A stretch of 64,000 nt of DNA, from assembly GCA_049643905.1 (NCBI GenBank), contig JBARQW010000100.1:7115-71114 (forward strand). Direction: 5' to 3'. Each line of letters starts with the position of its first letter. Position 1 is the first letter of the stretch. Origin of the DNA: Candidatus Bipolaricaulia bacterium (GTDB lineage: Bacteria; Bipolaricaulota; Bipolaricaulia; UBA7950; UBA9294). Both the position numbers and the translations under genes were made by a program. Below are positions 18,645-49,852 of the stretch, piece by piece. The notes beneath the pieces are model-generated. The model saw only the letters and a list, made by a program, of their open reading frames with translations, searched no databases and was not told the DNA's origin.

Positions 18645-18716
18645 GCGGGCATAGCTCAGTGGTAGAGCATCAGCTTCCCAAGCTGAGGGTCGCGGGTTCG
18701 AGTCCCGTTGCCCGCT
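18645..18716 (+). tRNA. tRNA-Gly (anticodon CCC)
   Basis: GCGGGCATAGCTCAGTGGTAGAGCA-TCAGC-TTCCCAA-GCTGA-GGGTC-GCGGGTTCGAGTCCCGT-TGCCCGCT. Confidence 0.85.
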
Positions 18717-23974: not shown

Positions 23975-24073
23975 GGGGACACGCGCCCTGGCGAACCTGG
24001 CTTCGGCTGGAGTAGCCTCTGCTCGGGGTTTCAGGAGGGTTTGGGAAGGGAAGCGACCGCCTCCGACCGAGCT

Positions 24074-25612
24074 ATGGGGACAGCACTCAACATAAGTCAA
24101 GATCTCGATCTGGATCTCGAGCAGATCATCGGGCAATGCATTGCCATCCTCGGGATTCGCGGATCGGGGAAGTCGAACACTGCGGGTGTCATCTTTGAGG
24201 AGCTTCTGAGAAACAACTACCCGATGTCGATTGTCGACATCGAGGGCGAGTACTTCGGCCTGAAAGAGAGCTACGAGGTTCTCGTCGTCGGAACAGGCGA
24301 GGGCGTCGAGATCGAGATCGACGCGGACAGCGCCGGTGAGATCGCTCAAGTGAGCATGGAACAGAATGTCCCGGTCGTCCTTGATCTGAGCGGGTTCCTC
24401 TCGGAGGAACGGACAGAGGTTCTCAAGGCGTATCTGTCGAGCCTCTGGAACTTGGCGGGTCGGCTCCGTCGTCCCTACATCATTGGGATTGAGGAAGCGC
24501 ATGAGTTCATCCCGCAGAGCGTGAAAACCGAGCTCAAAGAGATGATCGCACGGATTGCCCTACGTGGCAGGAAACGCGGCCTCGGAGGGATCATCGTCTC
24601 TCAAAGAAGCGCGAAGGTTGAGAAAGACGTGCTGAGTCAGGCCGGCATCCTGTTTCTCCACCGCGTCGTCCATGAGGTCGACATGCGCGTCTACGGCGAA
24701 CTCCTGCCGTGGCGGAAGAGCGAAGTGAAGGAAATCATCGGCTCTCTGGACACGGGCGACTGCATCTACCTCAATGGGGAGTCGATCCTGCCGATCTACG
24801 TACGGGAGCGGTCAACCTTCCACGCGGGGTTCACGCCATCGCTGGAGGCCGTGGCATCGCCGATGCTGAAACAAGTGAGCGCGTCGATTATCGAGGCGAT
24901 CGAGCGCGCGCGCGGCGGGAAGCGGAAGAAGACCCAGTTGCAGGAACTCGAAGGGAAGATCGAACGGCTGGAGGAGGAGCTTGCGAAGCGGGATCATGCG
25001 ATCTCGGGACTCGAAGACGTCGCACGGACTCTTGGATACATCCGCTTCGATGTCCCGGGAACCGCAGACGCGTGCGAATCCAGCGTCGACGGGGAGAGGC
25101 CAGCGATCGTCACACGAAGCGCCGCCAGCGAGTCGCGAGACGCCGCGAGCCAGGTACCGCAGCCACTGGGACTTATCAGTGGGAACGAAGAGGGGCTTGA
25201 CTCCCCCGTGATTGACATCACCGGGGGCGTTGAAGATGAGCGAGAGGAGCTTCCTCCGGCCGTCTTGCGCCACATCGATCGCTTGGTTTCCCGCGTCGCG
25301 AAGAAAGACCTCCTACAAAGACGACTCCTAGCGTTTCTGGTCGGGAGAGCTCCGGGAACGTACACGGTCGACCAACTTGCCGCGTGGACCGACTGCGCGA
25401 AGGGCTTGATCGATGACGAGCCTCCACGCGATTTCCTGGATGAGGGCCTGATCACGAGGGAGCGCCGTACAGACGGGATGCACTACCGGAGCTGCGTCAA
25501 GTCGTTCGTCCAAAGGGAATTCGGCATCTACCAGCCCGACATCGGCATGGACGGCCTTCATGCGGTGACGCAGCACCTGCAGCAACGTCTCTCTGCTGTG
25601 GCGGCGATCTAG
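24074..25612 (+). CDS. HerA/DUF87-like P-loop ATPase with central coiled coil and C-terminal winged-helix-like domain (start ATG 24074 or TTG 24041)
   Basis: Walker A 'ILGIRGSGKSNTAGV', Walker B 'PYIIGIEEAHEF', 'RGRKRGLGGIIVSQRSAKVEKDVLSQAGILFLHRV' (the HerA/FtsK-class arginine/Gln box), coiled coil 'KTQLQELEGKIERLEEELAKRD', C-terminal 'LLAFLVGRAPGTYTVDQLAAWTD...FLDEGLITRERRTDGMHYR'. Confidence 0.65.
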   Translation: MGTALNISQDLDLDLEQIIGQCIAILGIRGSGKSNTAGVIFEELLRNNYPMSIVDIEGEYFGLKESYEVLVVGTGEGVEIEIDADSAGEIAQVSMEQNVPVVLDLSGFLSEERTEVLKAYLSSLWNLAGRLRRPYIIGIEEAHEFIPQSVKTELKEMIARIALRGRKRGLGGIIVSQRSAKVEKDVLSQAGILFLHRVVHEVDMRVYGELLPWRKSEVKEIIGSLDTGDCIYLNGESILPIYVRERSTFHAGFTPSLEAVASPMLKQVSASIIEAIERARGGKRKKTQLQELEGKIERLEEELAKRDHAISGLEDVARTLGYIRFDVPGTADACESSVDGERPAIVTRSAASESRDAASQVPQPLGLISGNEEGLDSPVIDITGGVEDEREELPPAVLRHIDRLVSRVAKKDLLQRRLLAFLVGRAPGTYTVDQLAAWTDCAKGLIDDEPPRDFLDEGLITRERRTDGMHYRSCVKSFVQREFGIYQPDIGMDGLHAVTQHLQQRLSAVAAI

Positions 25613-26259: not shown

Positions 26260-27318
26260 GTGGTTAAGGTTCTGTCGCTGTTCTCCGGGAGCCTGGCAAG
26301 TCGAGTGGCAACGCGCTTGACGGAGATACACCCGGAGGTCGAGAGTGTATGTCTTCTGCACTTCCGTTCTCCTTTTGCCAGGGAGCCAGAGGATCTCCGG
26401 CAACTTGTGAAGGATGAGTGGCCGGGGGTTCCTTTCCGAACACAGTCTCTGAAGAGGGAGTACGTGGGGGTGGTCGATCCGGCTTGCGGTGATTCGTTCA
26501 GTCTCTCTCGCAGTTGTGTGAATTGTCGCCGGCTTCTTATGACCAGAGCGCTCCGCTACATGGAACGAACCGGTTCGGACTTCCTGGTCACCGGCGAAAC
26601 GCTGGGACAGCACGGCGTCGGCGGAAGGGAGATGGCCGGAATGGCCGGCAGCCTTGGCTTGACGGACCGGATCCTTCGCCCGCTCTGCTCCAAAGGCCCA
26701 ATGGATGGCGCAAGCGATCTCGCGAGTTGGACCAAGCTCTCGAACGGCCGGAAGTCATACTGCATGGCTCCGGAGAGACTGCGAAAACTGGCCGAAGAAC
26801 TGGGAATGGAGTCTCGGGACCCGATGACGTCTCGAAATCGGTGCAAGCTGACGTTGCCGGGGTTCGGGGATCGTGTGGCGCACCTGTTCCACGAGAAGGG
26901 GTTCACGCTGAACGAGCTGCGGTTGCTCGATTTCCCCTTGTACTACGAAGTCCGGCCGGATGCGAAGGTCGTCGTCGCTGTTGATGAGCAGGAAAAGCGA
27001 GAGCTACAGAATCTCTTCCTTCCGCAGGACCTGCGAGTGTATCCGGCTGCTCCACACGGACCGATGACCCTTGTGAGAACGCGCTGGGATGCGAGACGCG
27101 AGCGAAGCAAGGACAACGTGATTAGACTGGCGGCGCGAATCACGGCGACGCACCTAGGTTGCGAGGGGGAGACGGCGACTCCGATCTACTACAGATTTGA
27201 GAACGAGAACGAGAGACTGCTCATGAATGTGGTGCCGTTCGCCTCCTGCGCAGAGATTGCGCTTGTCGACGGGATCGACGTTGTCCCACTGAATGATCGG
27301 GCGATATCGGTCGGTTGA
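26260..27318 (+). CDS. ThiI-like adenine-nucleotide alpha-hydrolase (PP-loop) family protein with degenerate PP-loop
   Basis: 'SGSLASRVA' (cf. ThiI SGGFDSPVA) and 'FLVTGETLGQHG' (cf. ThiI ILTGESLGQV); 'CVNCRR' Cys pair; unrelated C-terminal half. Confidence 0.5.
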   Translation: MVKVLSLFSGSLASRVATRLTEIHPEVESVCLLHFRSPFAREPEDLRQLVKDEWPGVPFRTQSLKREYVGVVDPACGDSFSLSRSCVNCRRLLMTRALRYMERTGSDFLVTGETLGQHGVGGREMAGMAGSLGLTDRILRPLCSKGPMDGASDLASWTKLSNGRKSYCMAPERLRKLAEELGMESRDPMTSRNRCKLTLPGFGDRVAHLFHEKGFTLNELRLLDFPLYYEVRPDAKVVVAVDEQEKRELQNLFLPQDLRVYPAAPHGPMTLVRTRWDARRERSKDNVIRLAARITATHLGCEGETATPIYYRFENENERLLMNVVPFASCAEIALVDGIDVVPLNDRAISVG

Positions 27319-27857
27319 AGCAGCTGGCGTTCGCAGTATACTAGTCGGTCGGTAAGATTGCTTGGAGCAAGCTAAGGAAGGGTCTACGACCGGATTCAGA
27401 CCCAATCCCTATCAGAGAGAGACAGGTGACGACCCCGAGTGAGGGTAGAAGGGGGTGGTGTGCTTTTGCATCGCCTCATCGTGAGGGTTTCGGGAAGCGG
27501 TACCGCGCGCTTCGCCGTAATGAGAACGGAAGCGAGGATCAGGACACTCGCCGCAGTGCGGCAGGCGCGGAACGGAGCGATTCCTCACGCGCTTCGGCGG
27601 GATCCATGAGGGAAGTGGGTTCTTTCCAACCGACTGACGCAGCAGGGAAGAGAGAGTCGCCAAGGGCGAAAGCAACAACGACCGCAGGGCGATGGAGGAC
27701 GGTGGAGACGAGGCTGCGACGATCACGAAAGCTCATCGATGCGAGGGTTAGAGCGTCCTGTTGGGTTCAGAGGAGTGTGAAGCGAGGCGGCCTGTTTTGG
27801 GCCTCTTGTGCGTCGGTTGATCAGGAGTTCTGTTGCTCCCAAGGCGAGGTGAGGTAA
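27315..27857 (+). promoter_or_regulatory. candidate promoter (TTGAAG-16-TATACT at 27315-27342) and about 515-nt 5' leader of rpoC
   Basis: No ORF with protein-like translation in 27319-27857. In-frame TAA immediately upstream of the rpoC GTG. GAGGTGAGGT SD. Confidence 0.4.
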
Positions 27858-30800
27858 GTGATTTCTGGCGATGACATCAAGAGCGTGAAGCTGCAGCTCG
27901 CGCCACCGTCTGTGATTCTCGGGTGGTCTCACGGAGAAGTTACCGAGTCCGAGACGATCAATTACCGAACGCACCGCGCGGAGCGAGGAGGACTGTACGC
28001 CGAGGAGATCTTCGGCCCGGCGAACGACTACGAGTGCGCATGCGGGAAGTACAAGGGGAAGAAGTACGAAGGCATCACGTGCGAAAAGTGCCACGTTCTT
28101 GTGACCGACTCGTCGGTGAGGCGCGTCAACATGGCGCACATCCAGCTGGCGAGCCCGGTCGTCCATTTCTGGTTCCTAAAGGGAGTTTCGAGCCTTCTCA
28201 GCCGGCTTCTCGGCCTGAAGAAGAGGGAGCTTCAGCGGATCGCCTACTACGAGACTGAGCCGATGGAGCAAGCGCTCTACATGGTGACCTCTTCCGAGTG
28301 CAAGGACGTGCGTCCGGGAGAGACTCTCTACGCTTCAGAAGTTGAGGTCCTCGGGAGCGCGTTCGCGTTTGAGGTCGAGCCTGCCTACTTCGTCGAGGCT
28401 GCTCCTCGGGTGCTCGCTGAGGAGGAAGGGCGCGCGACGATCGAGGATCGCCAGCTCACCAACGGAGAGAAGTTCCGGTCCGTCGTGATCGGGTCGCAGG
28501 AGTATCCGCTTGTCGGCGACGTCGACCTCCTCATTGAAGACGGGGATGACATCGCGGCGGGCGCTGTCATCGTGGAACGTCCCGTGGACGAGCTGTGCTC
28601 AAAGACGGCGTTCGAGATGCTCGTCGATCGCTACGGCCCGGCGGTCAAGGGAGAGGACCTTGATCGCGAGATCCTTGACAGTCTCGTCTTTATCGTGACC
28701 CGACTCAAGGATCCAGATGTGCCCCTCGAGATTGGGGATCGATTGACGAATCTCGAAATGCGAGCCTACGAGCGGATTTATCCGTCCGGGTTCATTGCAG
28801 CGACCGGGGCTGCCGGGATCAAGGGGCTCCTCGAAGTGCTCGACATGAATGAGCTCCACCGTGTTCTGACCGAGCAGCTACGACGAGAGACGGCCGTCGG
28901 GAACAAGCGGCGCATCGTGAGACGACTTGAAGTGGTCGATCAACTCATTTCCTCGGGGAATAACGCTCAGGACATGGTCCTCGATGTGATTCCTGTCCTG
29001 CCGCCGGATCTGCGTCCGATGATTCAGTTAGAGGGCGGGAAGTTTGCAACGACGGACCTCAACGACCTGTACCGTCGAATCATCAACCGGAACAACCGGC
29101 TGAAGAAGCTTATCGACATGGGGGCTCCGGAGGTCATTCTGCGGAACGAACGCCGGATGCTCCAGGAAGCGGTCGATGCACTGATCCACAACGAGAAGAA
29201 AGAGAGCCCGATCCGCGGCCGCGACAACCGCCCGCTCAAGTCTCTGTCAGAGCGAATCCACGGGAAGCACGGCCGTCTCCGTCGGAACCTTCTTGGGCGA
29301 CGTGTCGACTACTCAGGGCGAGCCGTGATCGTCGTCGACCCGAAACTTCGTCTTCATCAGTGCGGACTTCCGAAGAAGATGGCCCTCGAGCTGTTCAAGC
29401 CGTTCATCCTGCATTATCTCGAGACGACGACATTCTCCGACTTTGACGAGATCAAGAATCGAGCGCTGGTGGGCGAAATGCCGGAGGTGTGGGACATCCT
29501 CGACAAGCTGATCAAGGATCACCCCGTCCTGCTGAATCGTGCGCCGACGCTTCATCGGCTCTCGATGCAGGCGTTCGAACCTGTGCTCGTCGACGGCGAG
29601 GCGATCCACATCCATCCGCTCGTCTGTTCGCCGTACAACGCCGACTTCGATGGAGATCAGATGGCCGTACACCTTCCTCTCTCCCCGGAGGCAATCCGGG
29701 AGGCTCGCGAGCTGATGGCCGCCCCGCGGAACATCCTGTCTCCGGCGAGCGGAGAGCCGCTAAGCCTTCCATCGCAGGACCCGGTCTATGCGTACTACTA
29801 CCTGACGCTCGAGGAGACTGACGGGGCGGGAGCAGGGAAAGCGTTCCGCGACATCGACGAGGCGCGTCGTGCTTGCGAGGAGGGCGTCCTTGGCCTCCAC
29901 AGCCCTGTTCGGATTCGCGTTGACGGGAAGCTGATCGAGACAACTCTCGGTCGAGCGGAGCTGAATCTCGCCTTTCCCGAGGAGATTCGGGACTACGGCA
30001 ACGTCCTCGACCGTCGTGCGATCAAGCGACTGGTGATGCAGAGTTACCACAAGTTCGGCTGGGAAAGAACGGCCGTGGTCCTCGACAACCTGAAGGATCT
30101 CGGATTCAAATATGCGACGCAGGCCGGCCTCACGATCTCCTTGAAAGACTGCCTGATTCCGGAAGAGAAAGAGGAGATTATCCGAGAGTCGCTCGCCGCT
30201 GTGCAGCGGATCGAGACGATGTTCAGGATGGGGTTGGCAACGGAGGAAGAGCGTCAGAACGCCGTGATCCGGATCTGGCGTCGAACGGTCGACGATGTCG
30301 AGGATGTCACGATGCAGAATCTCCGGAGCCACAAATTCAACCCCGTCTACGGCATGGTGACGTCCGGGGCTCGTGGCGGCCCGGACCAGGTGAAGCAGCT
30401 GTGCGGCATGCGGGGTCCGATGGCCGGACCTTCGGGCGAGATCATCGAACGCCCCGTCATCTCGAATTTCCGCGAAGGGTTGGACATGTTGGAGTACTTC
30501 ATTTCCACCCACGGCGGACGAAAGGGAGCCGCCGACACGGCGCTCAAGACAGCCGACTCGGGATACCTCACGCGGAGACTCGTCGACGCCTCTTCGGACA
30601 CCATGATCCTCGAGGTCGACTGCGGAACGACGCAGGGCTCGGAGATCTCGCCTCTTCGATTCAGCAGGACCGAGGTCATGGAGTCGATCGAGGATCGGGT
30701 GTACGGTCGAGTGGCGGCGCAACCGATCGTCGATCCGGGAAGCGGAGAGATTCTCGTCGAGGCGAATCAGTGGATCACGCGCGAGATCGCTTCGCATCTC

Positions 30801-32855
30801 AGCCAGCTGGAGTGTGAGCTTCCTCTCAAGAGTCCGGCTCAGCGCGAGCGCCTGATCGGCACGAAGAGCATCGAGGACGTCGCGGATCCGAAGTCGGGAC
30901 GCGTTCTGGTCAAGGCGGACGAAACGATCGCACCTCTGCTCTTGGATGCGCTCAAGGCGGCCAAGATCACGACGGTTCGTGTTCGCCCCAGGATCATCAT
31001 CCGCTCCGCCATGTTGTGCGAGACGGTTGGCGGGATCTGCCAGTTCTGCTATGGCTTCGACATGAGCAACCACCAACCGGTCCAGCTGGGAACGGCCGTT
31101 GGCGTGATCGCCGCTCAGTCGATTGGAGAGCCAGGGACCCAGCTGACGATGCGAACCTTTCACACCGGTGGCGTCGCCGGCGAAGACATCACGCAGGGTC
31201 TCCCGCGCGCCGAAGAGCTGTTCGAGGCTCGGAAGACGACGAAGGGCGGCGAGGCTGGGATCTCTCCTCTCGATGGTTACGTGACAGACATCTCCTCGAC
31301 CGCGACAGCTGGAGACCGCGTCGAGATCACCGGCGAGTCGAGGACTGCAATCCTGCCCGCCGCACTTGTTCGTGACGAGGTGGTCGAGGGTGAGGAGATC
31401 GACGTCGAAACCCTGATCGATCGGAGCAGCCCATGTGCAGGTGAGGTATACGTTATCGAATCGGACGGGCGAAGAGACATGCTTCTCCTCGACACGACGT
31501 CGGGGGATCGATCGTATGCCATCCCTGCGAACGCGGCGCCGGCGGTAAAGACGGGCAAGAAGATCTCGACTGGCGACGCGCTGTCGAACCGGTTCAACAT
31601 TGAGCCGATGGTTGCCGAGCATCGTGGGATAGTTCAGATCTCGGAAGAGGACGAGCGTCTATTCCAGCTTGTCGGGGACGACGGGAGTTTCATCGAGCAT
31701 CGCATACCGTTCGGCGCCAGGTTGATGGTTGAGTCAGGCGACAAGGTCTCCGCCGGGACGCAGCTCACATCTCGCTCGAAGCCGATCTTCGTGGCAGCCG
31801 AGAACGATGGAAGAGCGGAAGTGCTGGACGACTACGTTCTCGTCTACAACCCCGACGGAGGGGGTCTGCGGATTCCTCTGACCTCCGATGTAAGTTTCAT
31901 TGGCGACCACGGTGGCACCGTCAAGTCGGGAGAACGACTTGTTCAGCTTGAGATTTCGCATACTGGTACCGTGATCGTCGAGTCGATCGAGACGAAGGAC
32001 GAGGTCACCGTCGTGAAACTGAGGCCGAAGAGCAGTGTCAAGATCGACAAGGCCGTGACGGTCCGGGTGGGCGAGAAACTGGAGAAGGGCGATCCACTGA
32101 CCAAGGGCGCCGTTGCGCCACTCACCCTGCTCGACGAGGCGGGGGTACACAAGACGAGAGAGTACTTCCTGAACGAGATCCACAAGGTCTACAAGCAGCA
32201 GGGCGTGGACATCAACGACAAGCACCTCGAGGTGATCATCCGTCAGATCCTGAACAACGTACGGGTCGTCGACCGGGGTGATTCCCGTTTCCTCCTCGGC
32301 GATCTTGTGCCGTTGGAGGAGTTCCGGCACGAAGTGAGAAGGCTTGCCGAGGAGAATGAAGAGGTGGAACGAGCTCGCAGAGAGGCAATTGGGGTCAAGG
32401 TGGCGGAGGACGTCGTGGCAGCAGGTCATCTACTTGCATCCGCCGGGGAGTTGCTGACGGAAGAAGTGATCGCCGGGGCGCGCAAGATGGGACTCGCGAG
32501 CGTACGCATTCAGCATGGGGACGACTCGGAGGAGCTTCTTCTCGTTGAGAAGCTCCTACCGGACGGGGAGCGCGAGCTTCTACGGATCTCCAAAGCGGCT
32601 TTGCAGACGAAGGGCTGGTTGTCCGCTGCCTCCTTCCAGCGAACGACCAAGGTCCTCGCTGAGGCCGCTCTGCGCGGCGAGGTAGATGAGCTCGGTGGTC
32701 TGAAGCCGAGCATCATCGTCGGCAAGAGAATTCCCGCGGGAACGGGCTTCTCCGTTCCTGGAGGCCTCGAAGGAGTTGAGGATGATCTCGATGCGGTCGA
32801 GGGTGTCGATCTGGTCGGACGCGTCCCGATCGAAGAGACCGTTGAGGCGAGTTGA
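27858..32855 (+). CDS. rpoC: DNA-directed RNA polymerase subunit beta-prime, 1665 aa with large lineage-specific insertions
   Basis: N-terminal Zn finger '[21 protein letters not shown]', 'NADFDGDQM' catalytic loop, trigger-loop '[11 protein letters not shown]'. There is an insert of about 200 aa after the Zn finger and about 300 aa after 'LFEAR'. GTG start. Confidence 0.9.
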
Positions 32856-32880
32856 AGGCGAGAGAAGCGGTATCTATAAT
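32852..32880 (+). promoter_or_regulatory. near-consensus sigma-70 promoter for rpsL, -35 overlapping the rpoC stop codon
   Basis: TTGAAG-17-TATAAT; GGGGAG SD 5 nt before ATG 32905. Confidence 0.6.
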
Positions 32881-32904: not shown

Positions 32905-33270
32905 ATGCCAACGATCAACCAGTTGATCCGTCTAGGACGGAAAGCGAAGAAGAAGAAGAGAAAGGCGCCGCAGCTCGACTCCTGTCCGCAGCGTCGCGGT
33001 GTCTGCACTCGGGTATACACTCGGACTCCGAAGAAGCCGAATTCCGCGCTTCGGAAGGTAGCGCGCGTCAGGCTGAGCAACGGGAAAGAAGTGACCGCCT
33101 ACATCGGAGGCGAGGGGCACAGCCTGCAGGAGCACTCGATGGTCTTGGTGCGAGGAGGACGTGTCAAGGACCTGCCAGGCGTCCGCTACCACATCGTGCG
33201 TGGGACACTCGACGCTGAAGGCGTGGAAGGGCGGCGGCAGGGACGTTCGAAGTACGGGGCGAAGAAGTAG
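32905..33270 (+). CDS. rpsL: 30S ribosomal protein S12
   Basis: 'MPTINQLIR...[30 protein letters not shown]'. Confidence 0.95.
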
Positions 33271-33282
33271 GCGAGGAGACAG

Positions 33283-33741
33283 ATGAAGATACCGGGCCGA
33301 GACGTGAGTCCCGACATTCGCCACAGCAGCAAGCTGCTGGCGAAGCTGGTGAACTACGTAATGCTCGATGGGAAGAAGGCGATCGCAGAGCGGATCGTCT
33401 ACGGGGCTCTCGAGCAGATTGACGAGCGGAGCGAGACACCAGCTCTCGAAACGTTCAACGAGGCGATCGGCAACTGCTCTCCTCGACTCGAGGTTCGCAC
33501 GCGCCGCGTCGGTGGCGCGAACTACCAAGTGCCTTACGAGGTTCCGCCTGACCGACAGATTGCTCTTGCCCTGCGATGGATCGTTACTGCGTCGCGTGCC
33601 CGTGGCGAGCACACCATGGCGCTGAGACTGGCGGGGGAAATCCTCGATGCCGCCAAGAGAGAGGGCAAGGCCTACAACAAGAGGATCGATTCTCACCGCA
33701 TGGCGGAGGCGAACAAAGCGTTCGCTCACTACCGCTGGTAG
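33283..33741 (+). CDS. rpsG: 30S ribosomal protein S7
   Basis: 'LVNYVMLDGKK', 'NYQVPYEV', C-terminal 'AFAHYRW'. Confidence 0.95.
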   Translation: MKIPGRDVSPDIRHSSKLLAKLVNYVMLDGKKAIAERIVYGALEQIDERSETPALETFNEAIGNCSPRLEVRTRRVGGANYQVPYEVPPDRQIALALRWIVTASRARGEHTMALRLAGEILDAAKREGKAYNKRIDSHRMAEANKAFAHYRW

Positions 33742-33805
33742 TCCGTCTTATCTTCCAGGTTCTCGTCTGCTCGCGTTTCCCTAGAGCCGCAGAAGCGAGG
33801 AGCCC

Positions 33806-35881
33806 ATGGCTACGTCTGATCCGGTGAATCTGCAGCGCGTGCGCAACATCGGAATCATGGCGCACATCGATGCCGGGAAGACGACGACGACGGAGCGGAT
33901 TCTCTTCTACACCGGTCAGATCCACAGAATGGGCGAAGTCCATGACGGCGACACCGAGATGGACTGGATGACCCAGGAACGCGAACGTGGGATCACCATC
34001 ACGTCGGCGGCGACCAGTTGTGACTGGTCGGATCACGCCATCAACATCATCGACACACCCGGCCACGTCGACTTCACCGCGGAGGTCGAGCGCTCTCTTC
34101 GTATCCTCGATGGGGGAATCGTGATCTTCTCCGGGGTGGAAATGGTCGAGTCGCAATCGGAGACCGTCTGGCGTCAGGCCGACCGGTACCGGATCCCCCG
34201 GATCGCCTTCGTCAACAAACTCGACCGTGCAGAGTCGGGCTTCGAGGAGACCGTGGCAATGATTGAGGAGCGGCTCGGCGCTCGCGCCGTACCACTCTGC
34301 ATCCCGCACAGGAATGACGACAGGTGCCTCCTTGGTCTGGTCAACCTGGTAGAGCGCGAGTACCTCACTTGGGACTGCGAGTCGCTGGGCGCCGTGATCG
34401 AGAGGAGCGCCATTCCACCGGAACTCCTGGACAGCGCCGAAAGTCATCGGGAACTGGCAATTGAGCGGATCGCTGAGGTTGACGATGACGTGATGGAGCG
34501 ATTCGTTCACGGGCAGGAGGTCGGACCGCGTCTCTTCCACGATGGACTGCGTCGCGGGTGCGTGGCGGGTGAGCTGGTACCGGTTCTCGGAGGTTCGGCG
34601 TTTCAGAACGTCGGAGTGCAGCCGCTGCTCGACGCAGTCGTTCGGTACCTCCCTTCCCCGCTTGACGTTCCGCCGATCCGAGGGGTTGACGGTGACAAAG
34701 TGAGGAGAGCCGATCCGGAGGAGCCTTTCTCCGCGCTTGCATTCAAGGTCGCAGGAGATCGCTATGCCGGGCGCCTCGTTTTCGTGCGTGTCTACTCGGG
34801 GTCGCTGGAGGCAGGCGGACACGTCCTCAACGCGTCGGTGGACAAGGGTTTGAGAGTGACGAAGATCTTCCGGATGCACGCGAATCGACGCGAGCCGCTC
34901 GAGCGGACACAAGCCGGGGACATCGTGGCGATCGTCGGGTCCCAAGAGATCTCCACAGGCGACACGCTCTGCGACAAGTCCGACCCGATCCTGTTGGAGA
35001 AGATCGAGTTTCCTGAGCCGGTTGTCTTCGTGGCCGTCGAGCCTCGCTCCGAGGCGGAGTTCGGAGAGCTTCTCGAGGGGTTGCGCAAGCTGGCGCAAGA
35101 GGACCCGACATTCCGGATCCAAACGGACGAGACCACGAATCAGACGATCCTCGGAGGAATGGGAGAGCTCCATCTTGAGGTTCTTGTTCGGCGACTTCGT
35201 GAGGAGTTCGGGATGCACGCGCACGTCGGCCAGCCTCAGGTTGCGTATCAGGAAACCCTGTGCGAGTCGCTGGATGTGGAGGAGAGGTTCGTCAAACAGG
35301 TCAGCGGGCGCGGGCAATACGGGCACGTCGTCATCCGACTGGAGCCACTGCCGAGGGGAAGCGGGTTTCAGTTCGATTGCACTGCGAAGGACGACGAGGT
35401 TCCGAAACAGTACCGAAGTGCGGTAGAGAGCACGCTTCGAGGGACATTGACAAACGGTCCGTTGGCCGGTTATCCTCTCGCCGATATCGGAGCCACCGTG
35501 ATCGGTGGATCCTTTCACCCAGTAGACTCGTCGGAGCTTGCGTTTCGTGCGGCGTCGTCAGCGGCGTTGCACAAAGCGTACGCCCGGGCGGTGTTTGGCC
35601 TTCTGGAGCCGATCATGGAGGGCGAGGTGATAACGCCGGCAGAGTATCTGGGTGAGGTGATGGAGGACCTGGCTCGCAGGCGCGGGGAGATCAGCGAACT
35701 CCAGTCACGAGAGACGGTTCAGATTCTCTCGGTTGCGGTGCCGTTGGCTGAGACGTTCGGGTACGCCACGCGGCTGCGTTCTCTAACGCAGGGGAGGGCT
35801 ACGTACTCCTTGCGTGTGGTTCGGTACGACAGGGTCCCGGAGGGACTGCAGGAAAAGATTATCAAGAGTAGAGGGTACTAA
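33806..35881 (+). CDS. fusA: elongation factor G
   Basis: 'IRNIGIMAHIDAGKTTTTERIL', 'DTPGHVDF', 691 aa; rpsJ follows directly (no tuf). Confidence 0.95.
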   Translation: MATSDPVNLQRVRNIGIMAHIDAGKTTTTERILFYTGQIHRMGEVHDGDTEMDWMTQERERGITITSAATSCDWSDHAINIIDTPGHVDFTAEVERSLRILDGGIVIFSGVEMVESQSETVWRQADRYRIPRIAFVNKLDRAESGFEETVAMIEERLGARAVPLCIPHRNDDRCLLGLVNLVEREYLTWDCESLGAVIERSAIPPELLDSAESHRELAIERIAEVDDDVMERFVHGQEVGPRLFHDGLRRGCVAGELVPVLGGSAFQNVGVQPLLDAVVRYLPSPLDVPPIRGVDGDKVRRADPEEPFSALAFKVAGDRYAGRLVFVRVYSGSLEAGGHVLNASVDKGLRVTKIFRMHANRREPLERTQAGDIVAIVGSQEISTGDTLCDKSDPILLEKIEFPEPVVFVAVEPRSEAEFGELLEGLRKLAQEDPTFRIQTDETTNQTILGGMGELHLEVLVRRLREEFGMHAHVGQPQVAYQETLCESLDVEERFVKQVSGRGQYGHVVIRLEPLPRGSGFQFDCTAKDDEVPKQYRSAVESTLRGTLTNGPLAGYPLADIGATVIGGSFHPVDSSELAFRAASSAALHKAYARAVFGLLEPIMEGEVITPAEYLGEVMEDLARRRGEISELQSRETVQILSVAVPLAETFGYATRLRSLTQGRATYSLRVVRYDRVPEGLQEKIIKSRGY

Positions 35882-35884
35882 ACG

Positions 35885-36193
35885 ATGGCAAGGGAAAAGA
35901 TACGGATCAAGCTGCGTGGGTACGATCACGAGCTCGTCGACAGTTCGATTCGGAAGATTGTGGATTCGGCCAAGGAGTCTCGAGCGAAGATCTCCGGACC
36001 GATTCCGCTTCCGACCGAGCGGCGGATCTACACGGTTCTCCGCTCACCGCACATCGACAAGCGTTCGATGGAGCATTTCGAGCGGCGGATTCACACGCGC
36101 CTATTGGACATCAAAGAGCCGACCTCGGAAACGATCAACGCTCTGATGGACATCGAGCTCCCGACCGGGATCGACATCGAAATCAAGCTGTAG
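35885..36193 (+). CDS. rpsJ: 30S ribosomal protein S10
   Basis: 'IRIKLRGYDHELVD...SGPIPLPT..YTVLRSPH'. Confidence 0.95.
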   Translation: MAREKIRIKLRGYDHELVDSSIRKIVDSAKESRAKISGPIPLPTERRIYTVLRSPHIDKRSMEHFERRIHTRLLDIKEPTSETINALMDIELPTGIDIEIKL

Positions 36194-48898: not shown

Positions 48899-49852
48899 AT
48901 GGACGAAATGATCTTCCCCGATCAGATCAAGGTCGAAGAGCTCACTGAGACAACCGGGAGAATCGTCATAGGGCCGCTCGAGCGAGGGTTCGGCATTACG
49001 CTCGGAAACTCCCTGCGTCGAACGCTTCTTTCAGCGATTCCAGGCGCGGCGGTTGTTCGCGTTCGTTTCGCAGGCAAGTACCACGAGTACGACACGATCG
49101 AGGGCGTGAAAGAGGACGTCCTTGAGATCATTCTGAACTTGAAGGGACTCTCGCTCAGAGTGGCCGACGACGAAATGAGGCGGCTGACGCTCGAGAAGAG
49201 AGGTGCGGGCGAGGTAAAGGCCTCTGACATCAAAGTTCCGCCCGGCGTCCAGATCTTCAATCCGGATCTTCACATCGCGACGTTGAACGACAAGGGTGTT
49301 CTCGATCTTGAGTTGGAGGTCGAGGCCGGCTTCGGGTACGTGCCGGCTGAGAAGAACCGACTGGAGGACTCGCCGCTGTCGGTGATTCCTATCGACTCGG
49401 ATTTCTCGCCGGTGAGAAAGGTGAACTTCGTCATCGAGGACACGCGCGTGGGGGGGAAGACGGGATACGAGCGCTTGGTCCTCGATCTGACCACCGACGG
49501 AGGAATCCGGCCGGAAGAGGCTCTCTCCGAATCGAGTCGACTCGTGGGGCGGCATCTTGACCTGTTCAAGGACTTCGCGGAGCATCCGTTCGGCATCTCG
49601 ATCGAGGAGAGCGCGGGGCTCGTGGAGGAGGAACTCGGGATCCCGCTTCTGGATCTTGACATCGACCAACGCGCCTGCAATCTGTTGCACGAGGCGGAGA
49701 TCACGACGCTCAAAGAGCTTCTCTCGCACCCTCGAGAGGAGCTGTTGGACATTCACGGATTCGGGGCGAAGACGCTGAACAAGGTGGATGATCGGCTCAC
49801 GGAGCTCGGCTACGCTCTTCGGACCGAAGAGGAGATGCGCAGTGAGGCATAG
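48899..49852 (+). CDS. rpoA: DNA-directed RNA polymerase subunit alpha
   Basis: 'GPLERGFGITLGNSLRR', C-terminal domain 'DIDQRACNLLHEAEITTLKELL'. Confidence 0.95.
   Translation: MDEMIFPDQIKVEELTETTGRIVIGPLERGFGITLGNSLRRTLLSAIPGAAVVRVRFAGKYHEYDTIEGVKEDVLEIILNLKGLSLRVADDEMRRLTLEKRGAGEVKASDIKVPPGVQIFNPDLHIATLNDKGVLDLELEVEAGFGYVPAEKNRLEDSPLSVIPIDSDFSPVRKVNFVIEDTRVGGKTGYERLVLDLTTDGGIRPEEALSESSRLVGRHLDLFKDFAEHPFGISIEESAGLVEEELGIPLLDLDIDQRACNLLHEAEITTLKELLSHPREELLDIHGFGAKTLNKVDDRLTELGYALRTEEEMRSEA

Follow-up and report, generated by a model that had tools for sequence, protein, structure and literature searches.

Separation of rpoC from rpoB across Bipolaricaulota, with a Decayed FmdB-Family Zinc-Ribbon Gene in the rpoC Leader of One Genome

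The gene encoding the beta-prime subunit of RNA polymerase, rpoC, was analyzed in a 64,000-nt stretch of a Candidatus Bipolaricaulota (Acetothermia/OP1) genome with a GC content of about 0.61, referred to here as the window. The gene is located at 27858-32855 on the plus strand without rpoB, is followed directly by a str operon that lacks tuf, and is preceded by a spacer of 539 nt in which a broken zinc-ribbon gene was recognized. This gene order is a real and stable, phylum-wide variant of a very conserved cluster. Taken as a whole, it is probable that the window carries the normal rpoC-str-S10-spc-alpha arrangement of its phylum, that the rpoC leader consists largely of a decayed zinc-ribbon gene of the FmdB family, and that the beta-prime subunit has been enlarged by sandwich-barrel-hybrid (SBHM/HABAS) units.

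Gene Order around rpoC

The product of rpoC (1665 aa) showed a full-length match to TIGR02386 with 1411.5 bits, against a cut-off of 963.5, and contained all five Rpb1 Pfam domains together with the NADFDGD catalytic motif, the N-terminal zinc-binding cysteines and the trigger loop. Translation begins at a GTG codon with an in-frame TAA directly 5' of it (27855-27857). An exact look-up of the protein gave no record, probably owing to the GTG start, and one by S7 gave a match. On the same strand, rpoC is preceded by infB and by the genes for a CCA-adding enzyme, a HerA-like ATPase, HPF and a ThiI-like/NFACT-R protein. The last of these (26260-27318), a PP-loop protein with weak matches to ThiI and NFACT-R_2, is the final member of a conserved cca/HerA-like/hpf/thiI-like block and borders on the spacer (27319-27857). 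Downstream of rpoC, the plus strand carries rpsL (32905-33270), rpsG (33283-33741), fusA (33806-35881) and rpsJ (35885-36193), each assigned by an equivalog-level match. Together they make up a str operon without tuf (32905-36193, including rpsJ); rpsJ opens the S10 operon, and the S10, spc and alpha operons continue 3' of it through rpoA (48899-49852). The gap between fusA and rpsJ is only 3 nt, which leaves no space for tuf, and no rpoB, tuf, nusG or rplKAJL was found in the whole 64-kb window. Neither a canonical rplKAJL-rpoBC operon, with rpoB directly 5' of rpoC, nor a canonical str operon, with tuf 3' of fusA, is present. A first-pass annotation of the window had described rpoC as lacking rpoB and rplKAJL upstream, as starting at a GTG immediately after an in-frame TAA, and as preceding a str operon without tuf, and all of these statements were borne out.

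Relatives were identified using the first 500 residues of the rpoC open reading frame (ORF) as the query. As a result, 77 species-level relatives with 66-92% identity were obtained, all belonging to one clade, and the next-best beta-prime matches came from Kosmotogaceae/Petrotogales with 44-45% identity. The order cca / HerA-like / hpf / thiI-like / spacer / rpoC / rpsL / rpsG / fusA / rpsJ / rplC was found in essentially every locus of sufficient length among the approximately 77 Bipolaricaulota, and in 60 of the 75 evaluable loci of the metagenome scan described below. No rpoB, tuf, nusG or rplKAJL was detected within 10 kb of rpoC in any relative, and the fusA-rpsJ gap was about 1-5 nt in the measurable relatives, as estimated by approximate coordinate mapping. 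An assembly join had been named beforehand as the observation that would overturn this gene order. The recurrence of the junction in about 77 species-level loci, 60 metagenome contigs and one closed genome rules it out and indicates that the gene order is not a misassembly.

The closed genome is that of Ca. Bipolaricaulis anaerobius, in which nusG, the genes for L11, L1, L10 and L7/L12, and rpoB lie at 1,132,998-1,139,519, followed by genes for a hypothetical protein and an arsenic transporter (PMC11515920, Tables S1 and S2). The rpoC gene of the same genome is located at 635,776-640,704, within a block at 0.631-0.644 Mb; it is preceded by genes annotated as polynucleotide adenylyltransferase, unknown, "sigma-54 modulation protein", "thiamine biosynthesis protein" and "putative regulatory protein, FmdB family", and followed by those for S12, S7, EF-G, S10 and L3 (PMC11515920). 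Consequently, the search for rpoB elsewhere, which the first-pass annotation had recommended, placed it about 0.5 Mb from rpoC and still with nusG-rplKAJL in this closed relative. The same annotation had called the uncoupling of rpoB from rpoC and the tuf-less str operon unusual, in agreement with a 2024 survey of polymerase insertions in which rpoB and rpoC are adjacent in "virtually all bacteria" (PMC11515920). The split is already visible in public annotation, though no discussion of it was found: no paper describing an rpoB/rpoC split in Acetothermia or Bipolaricaulota was found among main texts, and the supplement of Hao et al. 2018 is silent on rpoB. In Caldisericum exile (GCA_000284335.1; PMC11515920, Table S1), elongation factor G is annotated between rpoB and rpoC. 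This break in the same deep group suggests that such breaks may be less rare than "virtually all bacteria" implies.

Comparator contigs of Thermotogae and Firmicutes carried nusG-rplKAJL-rpoB-rpoC, and the Firmicute contigs L081 and L082 continued with rpsL-rpsG-fusA-tuf-rpsJ; the canonical order was retained in loci L079 and L081-L083. A homology search with a Kosmotogaceae RpoB yielded no Bipolaricaulota rpoB, the four inspected contigs all being from other lineages with rpoB beside rpoC. As in the canonical cluster, rpoC, rpsL, rpsG, fusA and rpsJ and the S10, spc and alpha operons through rpoA are joined in the usual order in the window, with promoters at the operon boundaries. In contrast to it, the rpoBC operon is broken, tuf is absent from str, and translation-related genes and a zinc-ribbon gene precede rpoC. 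The conserved cluster is treated in PMC8046335, which cites Lathe and Bork (2001) on the differential loss of duplicated tuf genes. A str operon without tuf is expected where the str-linked copy was lost and the other was kept. The tuf-less str operon of this phylum would fit such a loss.

Promoters and the Zinc-Ribbon Gene in the Spacer

A sigma-70-type promoter was predicted at the start of the spacer (27315-27342, plus strand), consisting of the -35 element TTGAAG (27315-27320), a 16-nt spacer and the -10 element TATACT (27337-27342), with a predicted transcription start near 27349. It was the sole promoter-like site between 26900 and 28100, where shuffled sequence gave a mean of 0.2 sites. 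About 60 of the 71 relatives carry TTGAxx-16-TATACT at this position. When 65 spacers were aligned, TATACT proved invariant, and a block at approximately 27440-27640 was conserved with a three-base period. The rpsL (str) promoter, which had been placed straight after rpoC by the first-pass annotation, was recovered there as the consensus-like TTGAAG-17-TATAAT (32852-32880, plus strand) and is kept as TTGAxx-17-TATAAT in nearly all relatives. Both promoters flanking rpoC share the -35 element TTGAAG (27315-27320 and 32852-32857), each overlapping the TGA stop codon of the preceding gene, namely the ThiI-like gene and rpoC, and this stop-overlapping design recurs across the relatives.

Stop-to-stop translation combined with BLASTP revealed a family of small ORFs in 49 spacers of the relatives. 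Its members, with a total length of 66-117 aa, follow the pattern MPFYRYECxxCxxxFxVLxxxG...CPxCGSxxxxRLLPRIGVIYKGSGYYSTDYR and end in a low-complexity tail. Three divergent representatives scored 51.0-56.8 bits with TIGR02605 (cut-off 31.3) and 47.1-53.8 bits with PF09723 (cut-off 34.4), and by these profile matches the spacer gene is an FmdB-family zinc ribbon (TIGR02605, CxxC_CxxC_SSSS; PF09723, Zn_ribbon_8). It resembles FmdB proteins in the N-terminal MP.YxYxC..C ... C..C ribbon, the GSG[YF]Y.TDY motif and the low-complexity tail, and differs in being fixed directly 5' of rpoC in this phylum and in the loss of function of the window copy. When both CxxC pairs were required, the gene was intact in 47 of 71 spacers and not in the other 24. 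In a neighbour-joining tree built from beta-prime, the gene is retained by every basal lineage, whereas the 24 spacers that lack an intact copy are scattered over at least six separate positions; several of these spacers still carry broken zinc-ribbon similarity spread over multiple frames. The gene was also found directly 5' of rpoC in loci where the upstream synteny differs or is missing (L022, L029, L031, L033 and L062). In the relatives, the distance from the predicted transcription start to the zinc-ribbon start codon, that is, the 5' untranslated region (5'UTR), is about 70-125 nt, and the gap between the zinc-ribbon stop codon and rpoC is about 40-150 nt. Longer spacers of 850-1081 nt were seen in the basal loci L063, L064 and L068, with 220-550 nt from a promoter-like motif to the zinc-ribbon gene and 157-288 nt from there to rpoC. 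The predicted promoter most likely drives the zinc-ribbon gene and rpoC together.

A metagenome scan queried with the alignment of the zinc-ribbon family returned 80 loci, comprising 60 with the Bipolaricaulota arrangement, 5 that end just past the zinc-ribbon gene and 15 without rpoC downstream. The rpoC-less copies were 52-63% identical to the query, and in the four of them that were scanned with Pfam the neighbours were a LysE transporter, glyoxalase or ResB. No zinc-ribbon gene was present near rpoBC in the Thermotogae and Firmicute loci examined. The unrelated neighbours elsewhere and the absence near these rpoBC genes suggest that the pairing of the zinc-ribbon gene with rpoC is phylum-specific. 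One of the 15 loci, the metagenome contig L104, carries an rpoC fragment on the opposite strand 3' of the zinc-ribbon gene, reflecting either a local inversion or a chimeric assembly.

In the window, the region 27460-27751 (plus strand) can be aligned base by base to the intact zinc-ribbon gene of L002, a relative that shares 90% identity with the window in the N-terminus of beta-prime. The window copy has a GTG in place of the ATG, an early 1-nt deletion that shifts the frame, replacements of the first CxxC cysteines, a second frame change and a stop codon at 27635-27637. The profile hidden Markov model (HMM) of the family matched only the frame 27524-27634 (E = 8e-7; profile residues 26-57) and nothing else in the window. 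An FmdB gene is expected to have an open frame that begins at a start codon and encodes two CxxC pairs, and the window copy has no such frame. The lost ATG, the frameshift, the replaced cysteines and the premature stop identify this copy as a pseudogene. The closest relative, L001, has lesions of its own, including a 75-nt deletion. An independent Logan assembly (SRR28062505) was 99.9% identical over 16.5 kb, with 14 single-nucleotide polymorphisms (SNPs) and no gaps; its spacer was identical at 538 of 539 positions and contained the same broken gene, indicating that the pseudogene is not an assembly error.

By comparison with the layout of the relatives, the region 27349-27459 (plus strand) corresponds to the former 5'UTR of the zinc-ribbon gene, with a CCCC tract at 27433-27436 and a GGGGG Shine-Dalgarno sequence at 27451-27455. 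The region 27752-27857 (plus strand) corresponds to the gap between the former zinc-ribbon stop codon and rpoC, and contains a hairpin (27784-27805), the rpoC Shine-Dalgarno sequence GAGGTGAGG (27846-27854) and the TAA codon; within it, only the Shine-Dalgarno sequence is kept across the relatives. All relatives begin rpoC at this position with either GTG or TTG, preceded by a conserved GAGGTGA Shine-Dalgarno sequence. The first-pass annotation had reported a ThiI-like gene followed by a 540-bp spacer free of ORFs. The gene was confirmed as weakly ThiI-like and the spacer as 539 nt long, but the spacer contains the FmdB remnant as well as mechanical ORFs, one of them 143 aa long and in frame with rpoC and others on the minus strand. 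None of these other ORFs was conserved beyond the closest relatives, and they were rejected as chance ORFs in GC-rich DNA. Likewise, a short unannotated gene in the leader, which had been named as a possible objection, does exist in most relatives, while the window itself holds only its decayed pseudogene.

Inserts in the Beta-Prime Subunit

The boundaries of inserts were set by alignment gaps against two insert-free Firmicute beta-prime proteins, and four inserts were found in the window protein. Insert 1 (aa 149-285, about 137 aa; 28302-28712, plus strand) separates the N-terminal zinc finger region from conserved region B and contains one SBHM-like unit. A profile built from 64 sequences of this insert matched Thermus beta-prime at residues 145-196 (E = 2e-6 to 4e-6) and the structure 2AUJ (E = 0.0034). 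Insert 2 (aa 967-1017, 51 aa; 30756-30908, plus strand) and insert 4 (aa 1503-1566, 64 aa, near the C-terminus; 32364-32555, plus strand) were defined by alignment gaps only. These three inserts are common to Kosmotogaceae. The remaining one, an expansion of the jaw (aa 1127-1400, about 230 aa net; 31236-32057, plus strand), is absent from Thermotogae, including Kosmotogaceae, but occurs without change of length in every member of Bipolaricaulota that was sampled, basal lineages included. The first-pass annotation had reported two large inserts, one of about 200 aa after the zinc finger and one of about 300 aa after the trigger loop. Both were placed correctly, but their sizes were overestimated and the inserts of 51 and 64 aa had been missed.

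Analysis with hhalign resolved four mutually homologous tandem units at approximately aa 1200-1425, with probabilities of 93-98% for five of the six pairs and 55.5% for the pair u3-u4. A profile of 64 jaw regions matched two parts of Thermus beta-prime, the jaw SBHM at 1270-1326 and, with a domain E of 6.5e-6, the N-terminal non-conserved domain at 253-424. It also matched the crystal structure of the Taq insert (2AUJ; E = 1.2e-8) and residues 942-1124 of Xanthomonas beta-prime, which we take to be SI3. Weak Pfam matches to the small domain of apocytochrome f and to the NqrA barrel-sandwich agree with SBHM, and a homology search with the jaw insert alone returned only 3 proteins. The record of P0122, a beta-prime fragment with 53% identity to the jaw insert of the window, assigns it to the actinobacterium Rhodoglobus sp. 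The profile relationships indicate that the inserts belong, by sequence homology, to the known kind of SBHM/HABAS insertions catalogued for the Deinococcus-Synergistetes-Thermotogae (DST) group, and that the largest is a Bipolaricaulota-specific tandem expansion of the universal jaw SBHM/HABAS domain. The beta-prime subunit of B. anaerobius was typed as a "unique architecture" within the DST group (PMC11515920).

An assignment of the jaw insert to SI3 (beta-prime In6) was considered and rejected. The trigger loop is contiguous and aligns without gaps to Thermus 1245-1281, and the extra domains start only after LFEAR; since the trigger loop is uninterrupted, the large insert is not SI3. The repeats of the jaw expansion are of the kind that forms SI3, the trigger-loop SBHM of E. 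coli and cyanobacteria, but the insertion site differs, the extra units of the window lying downstream in the jaw. The non-conserved domain of Thermus beta-prime is about 280 aa long. Insert 1 resembles this domain of Thermus and Deinococcus in occupying the same site between regions A and B and in its SBHM-type unit, which gave the alignments to Thermus and 2AUJ mentioned above, whereas it is shorter, has one recognizable unit instead of several and is common to Kosmotogaceae. A contig with the Thermotogae-type order (L083, 8557-14163) encodes a beta-prime of 1868 aa with faint biotin-lipoyl and cytochrome-f-like matches, which suggests that a neighbouring lineage has SBHM expansions of even greater size.

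Origin of the Arrangement and Alternative Explanations

The arrangement is best explained by the following course of events. The rpoB gene would have stayed with nusG-rplKAJL elsewhere on the chromosome, while rpoC would have stayed joined to str-S10-spc-alpha, from which the str copy of tuf would have been lost. The rpoC gene would then have gained a new upstream partner, the small FmdB-family zinc-ribbon gene, and the strong sigma-70-type promoter TTGAxx-16-TATACT would transcribe this gene and then rpoC. In the lineage of the window, the zinc-ribbon gene has decayed, leaving a predicted rpoC leader of about 509 nt in which the former 5'UTR is followed by the dead gene and the former intergenic gap, and which probably has no function of its own. 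The beta-prime subunit is enlarged by four lineage-specific inserts of SBHM/HABAS units.

Several points weigh against this explanation. The surviving copy of tuf was not located. Promoter activity, co-transcription of rpoC and the leader length are all predictions from sequence. The fold of the jaw expansion was not confirmed by AlphaFold2, which gave a mean predicted local distance difference test (pLDDT) score of 39.9 with an alignment of only 4 sequences. Moreover, the spacer has mostly kept its length (about 400-540 nt) in most of the lineages that lost the gene, which recent neutral decay would allow and selection on the leader would also fit. Finally, about a dozen relatives have a terminator-like hairpin with a U tract 59-64 nt 5' of rpoC.

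The last two points would also favour a functional cis-regulatory RNA, an autoregulatory element or attenuator that offsets the lost coupling to rpoB, as had been proposed for the leader by the first-pass annotation. A GC-rich hairpin in the window (27784-27805) and a conserved anti-Shine-Dalgarno pairing point in the same direction: in most lineages a CCCC tract lies 15-20 nt 5' of the zinc-ribbon GGGG(G) Shine-Dalgarno sequence. The tests of the leader argue otherwise. At the gathering thresholds of Rfam 15 the window matched only 4 tRNAs, and a permissive scan of 27100-28000 (E up to 10) gave two chance-level matches with E of about 6. The minimum free energy of 27350-27870 was -188.5 kcal/mol, compared with -195.5 ± 6.7 for shuffled sequences (z = +1.04), and 84 of 100 shuffles folded at least as well. 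The spacer showed 52-60% identity to that of L001 over three parts, and the fourfold-degenerate sites of rpoC showed 44%, a level that indicates synonymous saturation; since globally aligned unconstrained DNA gives about the same identity as the spacer, the leader appears to evolve nearly neutrally. Conservation in the alignment of 65 spacers was confined to the promoter, the remnant of the zinc-ribbon gene and the two regions with a Shine-Dalgarno sequence. The window hairpin, with its U-poor tail and no U tract, did not score as a terminator. As to the CCCC:GGGG pairing, it is part of the translation start of the dead gene; RNAalifold paired 4 bp in the region 5' of the zinc-ribbon gene with a covariation term of only -0.19 kcal/mol. 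This pairing may form a hairpin that sequesters the zinc-ribbon Shine-Dalgarno sequence, though its covariation is weak. Longer complementary arms (GCCCTAG/CTAGGGC and CCCGC/GCGGG) were seen in other clades. With a short gene in the spacer of the relatives, its pseudogene in the window and null RNA tests, an autoregulatory leader is unsupported, and a functional RNA of this kind is considered unlikely.

The terminator-like hairpins of the relatives (L019, L020, L027, L035, L038, L040, L045, L048, L050, L051, L052 and also L037) show compensatory stem changes between lineages and are retained even where the zinc-ribbon gene has decayed. They may be attenuators in those lineages, and their presence in some lineages with a dead gene suggests that, in parts of the phylum, rpoC may be subject to some regulation acting between it and the small gene. 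Escherichia coli has an attenuator between rplL and rpoB. The relatives resemble this system in having a terminator-like hairpin between a small gene and a polymerase subunit gene, and in L019 no promoter-like motif was seen by eye after the hairpin; the window differs in having no canonical terminator, and the function of the hairpins in the relatives is putative.

Translation of the remnant as a short upstream ORF (GTG at 27460, 49 codons, end at 27609), which might for instance shield the leader from Rho-dependent termination, is judged very unlikely. The GGGGG Shine-Dalgarno sequence and a GTG at the ancestral start are retained, but the frame departs from the ancestral one after a few codons, the product is not conserved, with different lesions in L001, and, apart from the zinc-ribbon frame, the stop-to-stop segments of the region match 3 loci at most. 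An artefact of assembly or binning, with rpoB cut off by a chimeric join or with the frameshifts of the small gene being sequencing errors, is scarcely credible. The source is of the metagenome type and some related contigs are faulty, as illustrated by the inverted rpoC fragment of L104; against this stand the recurrence of the junction, the agreement of the independent Logan assembly, and the nature of the lesions, which include zinc-ligand replacements and the loss of the ATG in addition to indels. Decay of a zinc-ribbon gene that was probably once co-transcribed with rpoC remains the preferred explanation of the leader.

It was also considered whether the zinc-ribbon protein might be a lineage-specific partner of the polymerase, either a helper of beta-prime folding or assembly or a small accessory subunit, recruited when rpoC and rpoB separated. 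Such a role would explain why the gene is fixed 5' of rpoC despite upstream rearrangement, and the conserved adjacency is accompanied by a generic match to PF03604, the RPABC4/Rpo12 zinc ribbon, which at 20.7 bits stays below the cut-off of 24. The gene has nevertheless decayed independently at least six times, and its homologues in other contexts show no linkage to polymerase genes, so that this role is regarded as quite unlikely. If it were true, the repeated losses would mark lineages that no longer need the partner, and the very widespread, uncharacterised FmdB family would gain its first functional context.

Significance

The usual view is that co-transcription of rpoB and rpoC ensures that the two largest subunits of the polymerase are made in equal amounts. 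A whole phylum in which the two genes lie about half a megabase apart shows that this coupling is dispensable, and offers a natural case for asking how the ratio of beta to beta-prime is set without linkage. For the uncharacterised FmdB family, the analysis provides an association adjacent to rpoC that is fixed across Bipolaricaulota, and for an uncultivated phylum it provides two predicted promoters (TTGAxx-16/17-TATACT or TATAAT), both overlapping the preceding stop codon. The results also call for caution in annotation, as a long "ORF-free leader" of an essential gene can be a decayed small gene, a question that relatives settle quickly. In genome binning, rpoB and rpoC of Bipolaricaulota will fall on different contigs.

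Other Observations

Many public genomes of this clade (among L001-L077) carry the label "uncultured Thermotogae", and single genomes are assigned to Atribacteria, Neomarinimicrobiota or Thermotogota. These labels, like the Rhodoglobus label of P0122, are probably errors of taxonomy or binning.

The HerA-like ATPase (24041-25612) and the PP-loop/NFACT-R-like protein (26260-27318) are kept phylum-wide amid the CCA-adding enzyme, HPF and rpoC, and their best family matches are far under the cut-offs. The four tRNA genes, which are the sole Rfam matches within the window, are located at 1511-2232 and 18645-18716; three of them lie on the minus strand (Arg-CCG, Ser-GCT and Ser-TGA) and one on the plus strand (Gly-CCC).

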